Source: a virus. Taken from it: DNA of 64,000 nt. Shown piece after piece: positions 11,975 to 55,617 of this stretch. How positions within the stretch are numbered: position 1 is the stretch's first letter; every line of letters begins with the position of its first letter. Below the pieces are notes generated by a model. That model was not told where the DNA came from. It ran no database searches and was given only the letters and a program-made list of their open reading frames with translations. The position numbers and the translations under genes were made by a program. The stretch is from positions 47,325-111,324 of the IMG/VR virus record IMGVR_UViG_3300025598_000023. One strand, given 5' to 3'.

Positions 11975-12003
11975 TTGACATTACTATTAACATTTGATAA
12001 AAT
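11975..12003 (+). promoter_or_regulatory. sigma70-type promoter, probably leaderless
   Basis: TTGACA-N17-TAAAAT, then 6 nt to the ATG at 12010 with no SD. Confidence 0.6.
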
Positions 12004-35115: not shown

Positions 35116-35143
35116 ATAATACCACATTATTGGGGGTTGTCAA
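35116..35143 (-). promoter_or_regulatory. sigma70-type early promoter
   Basis: TTGACA-N16-TATTAT with TG extension; SD GGAGA downstream. Confidence 0.65.
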
Positions 35144-37112: not shown

Positions 37113-38237
37113 TTAACGCAATGCAGACATGATGAAGTCACCATTCTTAGCGTGGAATTCTTTATAGTTTGCCAGTTTACTTGTTTTCATTGGCAGACTA
37201 TAAACACGGACAAGAGTAGCAATCATCATAACTTGCAATTCTGTATCCATGTGATCAAGGAAGAAACGGATAACATTATCAATTTCACCATGCCAAGCAG
37301 TGTAGTCGGCATCTTTCATCTTGTCACCGCCGCGACGAACACAGCTATCCTTGAGTTCATAGCAGCATGAGACTGTAAGAGAATACTTTGCACCAATGTC
37401 TTTAGCTTTGAGTTCCTTGATTTTACCAGCAAGAATATCGCTTGGATTTGGCATTTGGCTTGCAACCTTGCGATGTGCAGAGAATTTAAGTGCAACACCT
37501 TCACCAACCGTGCCCGCAACAAGGTCATTCAATTCGGTATCACCAAGGTCTTCTTGCAAAAGGTCGCTAACAAACGACCAAGAACGAGGCGTAGCGAATG
37601 ATGCACCGCTTGAACGTGGGTCAAAGTTGAACAAATCACCTTTGTTACAGGTCACGTAAGCCACAACATCAGGGCTGATACCATGGTTCAATGCCCATTC
37701 ATTCCACGACTCAAAGTCAACACGCAAGTTCAAGTGAACAAAACGGTTAGCAAGTGGCGATGGCATACGATACACGACACCACGGTCAGTATCACGGTTA
37801 CCAGCGGCAACGATAACAACATTGTCAGGAAGTTCATAAGTGCCGACACGACGATTAAGAACCAATTGATATGCGGCAGCTTGAGTTGCAGGTGCAGCAG
37901 AGTTCATTTCGTCGAGGAAAAGCACCACAACAGGATACTTTGCGGCTTCCTCGGCAGTAGGCAAATCAGGCGGTGCATTCCACATCGCATTACCCACGGT
38001 AGGATTGTAGTAGAGAACACCCTTAAGATCGGAAGGGTCCATAAGTGCAAGACGCAAGTCATACAACTTGCCGCCCATGCTTTCGCAAATATCAGCAACC
38101 AATTCAGACTTGCCGATACCAGGCGCACCCCACAAGAAGATTGGGCGCTTACGCTTCATACATACCATAATTTCACGCTTAGCAGATGCAAGCGTAACTG
38201 TCCGCACTTCGGACACAGCATCATTAACTTTAGCCAT
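37113..38237 (-). CDS. MoxR-like AAA+ ATPase
   Basis: GAPGIGKS Walker A, LFLDEMN Walker B, AAGN, PLANRF, TPRSW. Confidence 0.9.
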   Translation of the reverse strand: MAKVNDAVSEVRTVTLASAKREIMVCMKRKRPIFLWGAPGIGKSELVADICESMGGKLYDLRLALMDPSDLKGVLYYNPTVGNAMWNAPPDLPTAEEAAKYPVVVLFLDEMNSAAPATQAAAYQLVLNRRVGTYELPDNVVIVAAGNRDTDRGVVYRMPSPLANRFVHLNLRVDFESWNEWALNHGISPDVVAYVTCNKGDLFNFDPRSSGASFATPRSWSFVSDLLQEDLGDTELNDLVAGTVGEGVALKFSAHRKVASQMPNPSDILAGKIKELKAKDIGAKYSLTVSCCYELKDSCVRRGGDKMKDADYTAWHGEIDNVIRFFLDHMDTELQVMMIATLVRVYSLPMKTSKLANYKEFHAKNGDFIMSALR

Positions 38238-38267: not shown

Positions 38268-38295
38268 AATATAACAGATTATTCTTGGTTGTCAA
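38268..38295 (-). promoter_or_regulatory. sigma70-type early promoter
   Basis: TTGACA-N16-TATATT with TG extension. Confidence 0.7.
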
Positions 38296-38971
38296 GCACT
38301 TTTTTTGTCTCTAAAAGTGGCTGAACCTTCATTTTAATCCGCACATAATGCAGACGTGTTTTGCTGTCCTCATCATGTTTATGGATGCGGGCTGTCAAAA
38401 TAATGACACTTCCACGCTCAAATTTTTCGGCAAACGGAAATAACACAAGGCAGTTATCTTCTGTCAGTCCAGTATGATACCACTTGTTATAATTATAGCT
38501 AAAAACTGCCGAAATAATGGTGATTTTTCCTTCAAAATTATCACCTACTTTGCCAAAATGTCGGCTATTTGCTTGCAAAGTATTAATTTCATCACGTGCA
38601 TTTTCACGAGCAATAGCATTTTTATATGAGCTTGGAACACTAGCAATTAGTGCTAAAGTCTTGTAATCATTAGCTAAAAATTCTTTCTGTTCAGTCAATA
38701 GAACCAAATTTCGCCAATAATCGTGCAATGTGCCGCCAATAAGTTCAAACATTTTACCATCAAGATATTCAATAATTTGTTCAGCACTTTCAATATCTTG
38801 TGGCAAAGCATTAACGTGTTCAATTTCAGGATTAAGGATATCACGCATCAATGCACCGTTGCTTTCCTCCCCCTTTTCTTTGTCAGCTTCATAGCGTTTG
38901 ATATAACGACCATTAATTCGTTGTGCCGCACAAGCAGCAGAAATAGCGTCTTTTAAGGTAATATTAGTCAT
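38279..38971 (-). CDS. Hypothetical protein, possible C-terminal OB-fold
   Basis: 230 aa; SRHFGKVGD...TRLHYVRI beta-rich end. Confidence 0.6.
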   Translation of the reverse strand: MTNITLKDAISAACAAQRINGRYIKRYEADKEKGEESNGALMRDILNPEIEHVNALPQDIESAEQIIEYLDGKMFELIGGTLHDYWRNLVLLTEQKEFLANDYKTLALIASVPSSYKNAIARENARDEINTLQANSRHFGKVGDNFEGKITIISAVFSYNYNKWYHTGLTEDNCLVLFPFAEKFERGSVIILTARIHKHDEDSKTRLHYVRIKMKVQPLLETKKVLDNQE

Positions 38972-39084
38972 TTTGCACCTTTATGCTTGTTTTTACGGCT
39001 ATAGCTACCCTTGCCCTTACGGGGGGTGACAATTTTTTGACGATATTTGGGGTCCGCAAGTGACTTTGCAATAAGGCTACGCAT
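38968..39084 (-). CDS. arfA: ArfA-like alternative ribosome rescue factor (38 aa, not in ORF track)
   Basis: MRSLIAKSLADPKYRQKIVTPRKGKGSYSRKNKHKGAK; KGKGSY core; SD GGAGA; own promoter; ATGA overlap with the downstream gene. Confidence 0.7.
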   Translation of the reverse strand: MRSLIAKSLADPKYRQKIVTPRKGKGSYSRKNKHKGAK

Positions 39085-39108
39085 CGCTAGTTCTCCATCT
39101 ATAATGCT

Positions 39109-39136
39109 AATTTAGCATATTTTTGGGATTTGTCAA
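39109..39136 (-). promoter_or_regulatory. sigma70-type early promoter
   Basis: TTGACA-N16-TAAATT with TG extension. Confidence 0.6.
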
Positions 39137-39513
39137 CCTAAAATTTCAATAGCTTGGCGTAAATTTCCATCGCACATAGCCAAAATTGTGGATAATTCTG
39201 TATCCATTAGGAATAATTCCCCACTGCTCATTTTCAAAAACCACGGGAATTTATGATATCGATCCATTAATACTAGTTCTTTACCATTTATTTGATACTT
39301 TTTCTTATCAATAAAGTGCTTATGAAAAGTATAACCAGCATTTGTTAATAGTTCAAATGAAGTATTGTTTAGCCTAAACCCAAAGTTTTTATTATTATGA
39401 TACCAATATAGAACATAGATGTTTTTTAAATTAGGATTTGGTATAGGCGCGTCTGCACCGTGAGCAAAGTGGTATAATTCGTGTGTCCAATCAGTTTTTG
39501 ATTTATCTATCAT
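39133..39513 (-). CDS. Hypothetical protein
   Basis: 126 aa, ATGA-coupled. Confidence 0.6.
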   Translation of the reverse strand: MIDKSKTDWTHELYHFAHGADAPIPNPNLKNIYVLYWYHNNKNFGFRLNNTSFELLTNAGYTFHKHFIDKKKYQINGKELVLMDRYHKFPWFLKMSSGELFLMDTELSTILAMCDGNLRQAIEILG

Positions 39514-39803
39514 TTTGTGGGATAAACAGCAGCACCACTGTTCAATAGCACAACACTAAAACGGTTTGTCTTGAATTGTGCATTTAACTTTTTACATAAA
39601 TTGATTGCATGACCAGGATTTGAAAAACTAGACTTCTTATACTTTGGTCCGCTATATTGTGCTAACATACTGGTAGTTTTAAGATTTACTGGTTTATTAT
39701 CCAAGAAAATTGCCCAAATGCCTTCACTAGCCAGAACTTGCTCTGACTTATATGTTTGCTTATTTGTAATTTCAAGCAGTACTTGAGGCTTCGGTCTTGA
39801 CAT
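39510..39803 (-). CDS. Conserved basic phage protein
   Basis: MSRPKPQVLLE...PKYKKSSFSNPGHAINL; TAAATA at 39823-39828. Confidence 0.7.
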   Translation of the reverse strand: MSRPKPQVLLEITNKQTYKSEQVLASEGIWAIFLDNKPVNLKTTSMLAQYSGPKYKKSSFSNPGHAINLCKKLNAQFKTNRFSVVLLNSGAAVYPTK

Positions 39804-42546: not shown

Positions 42547-42574
42547 AATATAACATATTTATGGGGTTTGTCAA
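42547..42574 (-). promoter_or_regulatory. sigma70-type promoter with embedded TAAATA
   Basis: TTGACA-N16-TATATT; the spacer contains TAAATA (42556-42561). Confidence 0.65.
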
Positions 42575-45316: not shown

Positions 45317-45345
45317 AATATAACAAAATACGAGTTAGTTGTCAA
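45317..45345 (-). promoter_or_regulatory. sigma70-type early promoter
   Basis: TTGACA-N17-TATATT with TG extension; SD AAGGA. Confidence 0.7.
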
Positions 45346-55577: not shown

Positions 55578-55617
55578 TTGACAGACTGGGTAATTGTGGT
55601 AATATAAGGTATAAATA
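55578..55617 (+). promoter_or_regulatory. sigma70-type promoter plus perfect T4-type late box (rightward)
   Basis: TTGACA-N16-TAATAT (55578-55605) followed by TATAAATA (55610-55617); SD GGAG. Confidence 0.65.

Follow-up and report, generated by a model that had tools for sequence, protein, structure and literature searches.

Gene Layout and Promoter Class at the Locus

The window analysed here, a 64,000-nt stretch of a 111-kb IMG/VR virus record (CheckV completeness 33%), carries on its minus strand a 38-codon open reading frame (ORF) that is preceded by a σ70-type promoter and a Shine-Dalgarno sequence and shares an ATGA with the gene for a 230-aa protein (Table 1). The initial annotation had described an unannotated ORF with a promoter, a Shine-Dalgarno sequence and ATGA coupling at this place; we located each of these elements and recovered the same 38-aa sequence. 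The −35 hexamer contains the stop codon (39135..39133) of the upstream 126-aa gene, the promoter spacer carries an extended −10 TG, and the ribosome-binding GGAG (39096..39093) lies 8 nt from the ATG. The overlap between the stop codon of the ORF and the start codon of the 230-aa gene suggests that translation of the two may be coupled.

The 230-aa gene belongs to the same transcription unit. The AlphaFold model of its product had a pLDDT of 69.5, with values above 85 in a C-terminal five-strand barrel (residues about 145–216), and this C-terminal domain is predicted to be an OB-fold-like β-barrel; a Foldseek search of the model against the PDB returned nothing at E ≤ 0.001 and only weak OB-fold, S1/IF1-like rows. 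The next gene encodes a MoxR-like AAA ATPase that is only 46% identical to its counterpart in PA5oct-like jumbo phages, and a megablast search of GenBank phages with the 4-kb region gave no match. This phage lineage is known solely from metagenomes; its DNA occurs in freshwater metagenomes, and there was no RNA run among the sequencing runs listed.

Table 1. Positions of the features described in the text, numbered from the first nucleotide of the window.
Feature	Position	Strand	Details
38-aa short-form ArfA-family ORF	38968..39084	−	ATG 39084..39082; stop TGA 38970..38968
Promoter of the ORF, σ70-type	39109..39136	−	TTGACA 39136..39131; 16-nt spacer; TAAATT 39114..39109
Extended −10 TG	39117..39116	−	in the promoter spacer
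Leader of the ORF	39091..39104	−	TTATAG 39104..39099; Shine-Dalgarno GGAGAA 39096..39091
ATGA overlap	38968..38971	−	stop TGA of the ORF; ATG of the 230-aa gene 38971..38969
230-aa gene	38279..38971	−	downstream of the ORF; no family match
MoxR-like AAA ATPase gene	37113..38237		next gene after the 230-aa gene
97-aa protein gene	39510..39803	−	
Promoter-class copies	35116..35143, 38268..38295, 39109..39136, 42547..42574, 45317..45345	−	TTGACA-N13/14-TGnTAnnnT
Promoter-class copies	11975..12003, 55578..55605	+	TTGACA-N13/14-TGnTAnnnT

The pattern TTGACA-N13/14-TGnTAnnnT was found in seven copies in the window, as compared to 0.23 expected, and none of 100 shuffles reached seven; a loose σ70 scan of the window was without enrichment (22 sites, 22.2 expected). 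Four of the minus-strand copies (those starting at 42574, 39136, 38295, and 35143) also have a TTATAG...GGAGAA...ATG leader in common. The promoter and Shine-Dalgarno sequence of the ArfA-like ORF are members of this statistically real promoter class, which may act early in infection, the timing that the initial annotation gave to the promoter of the ORF. In the shared leaders, the TTATAG 3′ of the −10 hexamer is conserved.

Family Membership, Conservation, and Distribution

The 38-aa peptide matched the Pfam ArfA family (PF03889) at 39.5 bits, above the gathering cut-off of 25.5 bits (E = 3.8e-10), with residues 9–35 aligned to model positions 18–44; the same model also found the protein when run over the whole virus record. 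A phmmer search against PDB sequences returned six E. coli ArfA sequences (E about 2e-5; query residues 5–35, ungapped). Both searches confirm the ArfA-family identity for which the initial annotation had suggested an HMM search, and the alignment with the PDB chains showed that the E. coli ArfA core sequence given there was correct. No NCBIfam model matched the peptide, and PHROGs placed it in an unnamed family only.

The ORF was intact in all 15 syntenic relatives, and 14 related phage contigs keep it with changes that were mostly synonymous; the related contigs in IMG/VR include a complete 338-kb genome with terminal repeats. The gene order p158-p73-p97-p126-ArfA-like-p230-AAA ATPase was kept in 15 related contigs, with p230 directly following the ORF in all 15 and the ATGA junction kept in the closest relatives (L004–L012). 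An alignment of eight related loci showed conservation of the −35 hexamer, the Shine-Dalgarno sequence, the start codon, and the ATGA junction; the TTGACA was invariant in seven related contigs, and the TTATAG...GGAGAA leader was also conserved in relatives. Variable columns within the ORF numbered 9, 3, and 19 at codon positions 1, 2, and 3, respectively, and codons with synonymous changes outnumbered those with non-synonymous changes in six of seven comparisons. Conservation together with this third-position bias indicates that the ORF is translated and under purifying selection. Among its neighbours, the 97-aa protein was 97–100% identical in the closest relatives and 82–94% identical in more distant clade members, while p126 and p230 were 50–88% identical among relatives and, therefore, far less conserved than the 97-aa protein.

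The initial annotation had called this gene hidden; however, the exact protein is present in IMG/ENA gene calls, where 4 of the 28 proteins in its 90% cluster carry the name “stalled ribosome alternative rescue factor ArfA”, and tblastn with the phage protein found GenBank phage genes annotated as ArfA that are 45–58% identical. Phage genes annotated in this way include g10 of Citromicrobium phage vB_CbaS-RXM and genes of Brevundimonas jumbo phages such as Kikimora (KIKIMORA_04590; a 111-nt CDS encoding 36 aa). Phages of hosts outside the β- and γ-proteobacteria, such as those of Caulobacter, Brevundimonas, Citromicrobium, Pelagibacter, and Microcystis, also carry relatives. Phage ArfA is mentioned in PMC8953757 and PMC12753301, and the homologue gp30 of pelagiphage HTVC027P is reported to be highly expressed both early and late in infection (PMC12753301). 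Phage ArfA is, as an idea, not new, as annotation pipelines and a few phage genome papers already use the name; a functional or bench study of any phage ArfA was not found in the literature searched. The annotated phage proteins (RXM g10, Kikimora, and HTVC027P gp30) are, like the protein described here, small PF03889 proteins with their own stop codon, but they belong to alphaproteobacterial phages with unrelated genome contexts, whereas the gene described here lies in a freshwater jumbo-phage p126-ArfA-p230-AAA ATPase context.

An HMMER search that covered all 1.8 billion representatives gave 32 clusters at E ≤ 0.001, most of them of 35–67 aa, and one scan of IMG/VR placed relatives on at least 220 viral contigs. 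Among the best 80 of these (at least 220) contigs, the stop codon was located no more than 13 residues from the motif in 66, and the same start position was found in 19. A separate arrangement was observed in 11 viral contigs (L021–L023, L044, L047, L049, L066, L071, L073, L074, and L082), where the ArfA-like segment forms the N-terminal part of a 117–163-aa protein with a conserved C-terminal domain (motif ...GQWSARKAQ...GGGY) that has no Pfam match. ORFs of 38 codons often arise by chance in AT-rich DNA, and the 3.5 kb surrounding the locus overlap with 54 ORFs of 20 aa or more, so that the ORF might in principle have arisen by chance or be a non-functional remnant in the spacer between genes. 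However, the Pfam E value, the third-position bias, the conserved promoter and Shine-Dalgarno sequence, the 28-member cluster, and the many viral relatives make this explanation extremely improbable.

No RF-1-domain protein, tRNA, or tmRNA was found in the 111-kb record, and the complete 338-kb relative, which carries the ArfA-like gene, has no RF-1-domain protein and no tmRNA; a phage without an RF-1-domain protein would need a release factor from its host. A 4.6-kb contig of a closely related phage (RGPR01000123.1), with an ArfA-like ORF 95% identical to the one described here, was binned in a 2.1-Mb freshwater gammaproteobacterial metagenome-assembled genome. This genome encodes RF1 and RF2 (RF2 with the SPF motif) and no ArfA of its own, and its GC content is similar; the binning may represent either mis-binning or a weak hint at the host.

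Retained Residues, the N-terminal Minidomain, and mRNA Design

The phage protein and E. coli ArfA (YhdL; PDB 5MGP, 5MDV, 5U4I, 5H5U, and 7OJ0) share the DP kink, the RF2-docking strand (F/Y-R-Q-basic-I/V-V), the KGKGSY and KH motifs, and a basic tail reaching past residue 45. In the ungapped alignment, phage D11-P12 corresponds to E. coli D22-P23, Y14 to F25, Q16-K17-I18-V19 to Q27–E30, and K33-H34 to the KH motif K44-H45, while KGKGSY is identical in both proteins. In E. coli ArfA, Q27–E30 add a β-strand to the RF2 domain II/IV sheet, F25 makes hydrophobic contacts with RF2, and the basic tail and KH motif occupy the mRNA entry channel (PMC8012679). The 1–40 truncation of E. coli ArfA is inactive and residues beyond about 48 are dispensable (PMC8012679); the last phage residue, K38, corresponds to position 49 and thus lies past this truncation. 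Judged from these correspondences, the phage protein keeps what the ribosome-sensing and release-factor-docking parts require. The two proteins differ in length (a 72-aa ORF with a roughly 55-aa active product in E. coli as compared to 38 aa in the phage), and the phage protein, which is phage-encoded and expressed from a phage promoter, does not have the hydrophobic C-terminal extension of E. coli ArfA.

The first residue of the phage protein corresponds to residue 12 of E. coli ArfA, so that the first 11 residues of the latter, including Thr7, Lys8, and Ile11, have no counterpart. Only eight residues precede the segment matched by the Pfam model, and model positions 1–17 are unmatched; for comparison, the match covered model positions 1–44 in Pseudoalteromonas ArfA (86.8 bits), 5–42 in Halomonas ArfA, and 12–43 in Pseudomonadaceae. 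In E. coli, the minidomain made up of residues 2 to about 25 takes shape only with RF2 open, Thr7 and Lys8 contact h44, Ala18 packs between C1914 and Ile11, and RF2 Trp319 is held by Leu19, Leu24, and Phe25; the A18T substitution abolishes activation of RF2, which is still recruited (Demo et al., PMC5378476). The phage protein has K7 at the position of Ala18, S8 at that of Leu19, and Lys at that of Leu24, and of the Leu19/Leu24/Phe25 patch only Phe25 is retained, as Tyr. The part that opens RF2 in E. coli is, therefore, largely absent or rebuilt, and the statement in the initial annotation that the phage encodes only the active core goes somewhat too far. With these minidomain residues missing or replaced, the E. 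coli way of opening RF2 cannot be copied as such, and we, therefore, file the gene as a short-form ArfA subfamily rather than as a mechanistic equivalent of E. coli ArfA. The N-terminus is nevertheless not random: across 30 relatives it has the consensus RN..AK.L.DPKYRQ, and at least 90% of rows have A6 and L9. We found no data on N-terminal deletions of ArfA in PMC4245945. A two-chain complex prediction for the peptide and RF2_ECOLI, run with no controls, scored 0.27 as compared to a mark of 0.32; the method suits this pair poorly because PMC4245945 reports in vitro binding of E. coli ArfA to the ribosome and none to free RF2.

The mRNA of E. coli arfA is truncated at an internal hairpin, and its product appears only when trans-translation is overwhelmed (PMC8012679). 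The phage gene, unlike E. coli arfA, ends in a real UGA stop codon and has no RNase III or terminator hairpin; folding of 176 nt at the ORF gave z = +0.93 as compared to dinucleotide shuffles. As a control, 120 nt of every fetched locus were folded, counted from a point 15 nt upstream of the end of the KGKGSYxR motif. Chromosomal loci with tails of at least 13 residues, mostly gammaproteobacterial, presented a median z of −3.27 (n = 24; z < −2 in 19), while the median was −0.95 in this phage clade (n = 14; z < −2 in 2), −0.57 in other viral contigs (n = 64; z < −2 in 9), and +0.15 in short chromosomal forms, mostly from SAR11 (n = 56; z < −2 in 3). The 120-nt window of the gene itself gave z = −1.84 as compared to mononucleotide shuffles, a signal that is absent from its closest relatives. 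A putative processing-site hairpin (CCC-CGTAA-GGG) over the PRKG codons was rejected as it is weak, explained by the coding sequence, and without a fold signal. The real stop codon and the unstructured 3′ region indicate that the gene does not follow the design of E. coli arfA, in which the mRNA is non-stop and synthesis is gated by tmRNA (PMC8012679). The term deregulated used in the initial annotation is, therefore, partially supported: it applies to the design of the gene, with its real stop codon and no 3′ hairpin. We conclude that the ORF is real and under purifying selection, and that it is an ArfA family member without non-stop design.

Chromosomal ArfA proteins of Pseudoalteromonas, Paraglaciecola, Psychrobium, and Pseudomonas/Stutzerimonas were observed to end in ...LKAA, ...LMAA, ...FLAA, or ...LLAG (L133–L135, L139, L140, L148–L152, L155, L157–L159, and L161–L163, all from gammaproteobacterial genomes). 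These ends resemble the C-terminus of the ssrA degradation tag, and the corresponding 3′ regions are strongly structured; the full-length gammaproteobacterial ArfA product may carry a built-in degron.

A genome scan found a 38-aa, real-stop gene of the same layout in dozens of Pelagibacteraceae genomes (L085–L132 and others), while a review describes ArfA as restricted to β- and γ-proteobacteria (PMC8012679). The SAR11 form shares with the phage form its length (about 38 aa), its start position relative to the motif, the N-terminal (K/R)N..AK.L, a real stop codon 5–8 residues after KGKGSYxR, an unstructured 3′ region, and a match to the second half of the Pfam model only; it differs in being a cellular gene, often with a TTG or GTG start, and most copies do not have the DP and KH motifs. 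The SAR11 gene is located among housekeeping genes (for instance L087:1492-1608); one copy has as its neighbours genes for an L,D-transpeptidase, a response-regulator-like protein, a PfkB kinase, and a DNA glycosylase. The presence of a chromosomal short form among SAR11 housekeeping genes favours a working cellular factor rather than a crippled one.

Proposed Mode of Action and Alternative Explanations

The reading that we favour, with a probability of about 0.6, is that the ORF encodes a short-form ArfA-family factor whose expression is constitutive and which senses non-stop ribosomes and brings in a release factor of the host. The product would be a basic peptide of 38 residues, translated from an ordinary mRNA that comes with a promoter, a ribosome-binding site, and a UGA stop codon of its own; since no internal hairpin is present, it would be made whenever the promoter fires and not only upon failure of trans-translation. 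By homology, where a ribosome has stalled at the 3′ end of an mRNA that is cleaved or has no stop codon, the basic tail of the peptide (KGKGSY...KH) would thread into the empty mRNA channel, and the YRQKIV segment would, through β-strand addition, hold a class-I release factor of the host, most likely RF2; hydrolysis of the nascent chain and recycling of the ribosome would follow. In an infected cell, ribosomes trapped on broken mRNA would thereby become available again for the translation of phage genes. The parts of this scheme that we infer are binding to the ribosome, the choice of release factor, its activation without an E. coli-type minidomain, the timing of expression, and the benefit to the phage. 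The freeing of ribosomes after host mRNA cleavage and the countering of RelE-type defences, both put forward in the initial annotation, are candidate roles and speculative.

The proposed mode resembles that of BrfA (Bacillus) and ArfT (Francisella), two rescue factors that depend on a release factor; both are also small and basic, and on sensing an empty mRNA channel they recruit a release factor of class I. BrfA, in addition, has a KH motif and uses β-strand addition (PMC8012679), but it is made from a non-stop mRNA, unlike the phage gene. The comparison with BrfA and ArfT made here concerns their mode.

Two further explanations accept the gene as a functional ArfA relative. The peptide could be an ArfA-derived plug that fills the empty mRNA channel, and perhaps recruits closed RF2, without triggering hydrolysis, so that it blocks or diverts rescue by tmRNA-SmpB, ArfA, or ArfB or sequesters RF2 in host takeover. 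The minidomain that opens RF2 in E. coli is indeed missing or divergent here, with Lys at the A18 position, and E. coli ArfA(A18T) binds and recruits RF2, yet is inactive (PMC8012679, PMC5378476). However, Pelagibacteraceae have a conserved chromosomal gene of the same short architecture, and an inhibitor of rescue makes little sense there; the N-terminal motif (R/K)N..A(K/R).L is conserved across short forms (at least 90% of rows have A6 and L9), which suggests that the N-terminus is functional and has not simply been lost; and trapped ribosomes would probably cost the phage translation capacity. We, therefore, regard a plug as quite unlikely.

Alternatively, the peptide may be a rescue factor with another partner or mode, such as RF1 or both release factors (as for ArfT), or a different way of opening. 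The RF2-specificity residues of E. coli ArfA (Leu19 and Leu24) are not kept, and relatives are found in phages of hosts outside the β- and γ-proteobacteria, both of which would fit such a change, but the RF2-docking strand is conserved, as is the residue equivalent to Phe25, and this explanation, too, seems unlikely, though less so than a plug. In a further, tentative reading, which we hold to be possible rather than probable, the phage and SAR11 short forms may represent a mechanistically distinct class of rescue factors that plug the mRNA channel as ArfA does, switch on a release factor (RF2, RF1, or both) without an E. coli-type minidomain, and are made constitutively instead of under tmRNA control; phages would spread this minimal module to hosts without an ArfA of their own.

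If the peptide works as the favoured reading proposes, many phages bring with them a minimal, unregulated factor that clears ribosomes on broken messages, and they would have a simple means to preserve their capacity for translation while host mRNA decays or a nuclease-based defence is at work. For the ArfA family, the short form represents a natural experiment in which the sensing tail and the docking strand are kept while most of the minidomain is dropped; what stands out is how activation of a release factor could work in a 38-residue form from which most of the minidomain is gone, and a peptide of this size is easy to synthesise and test.
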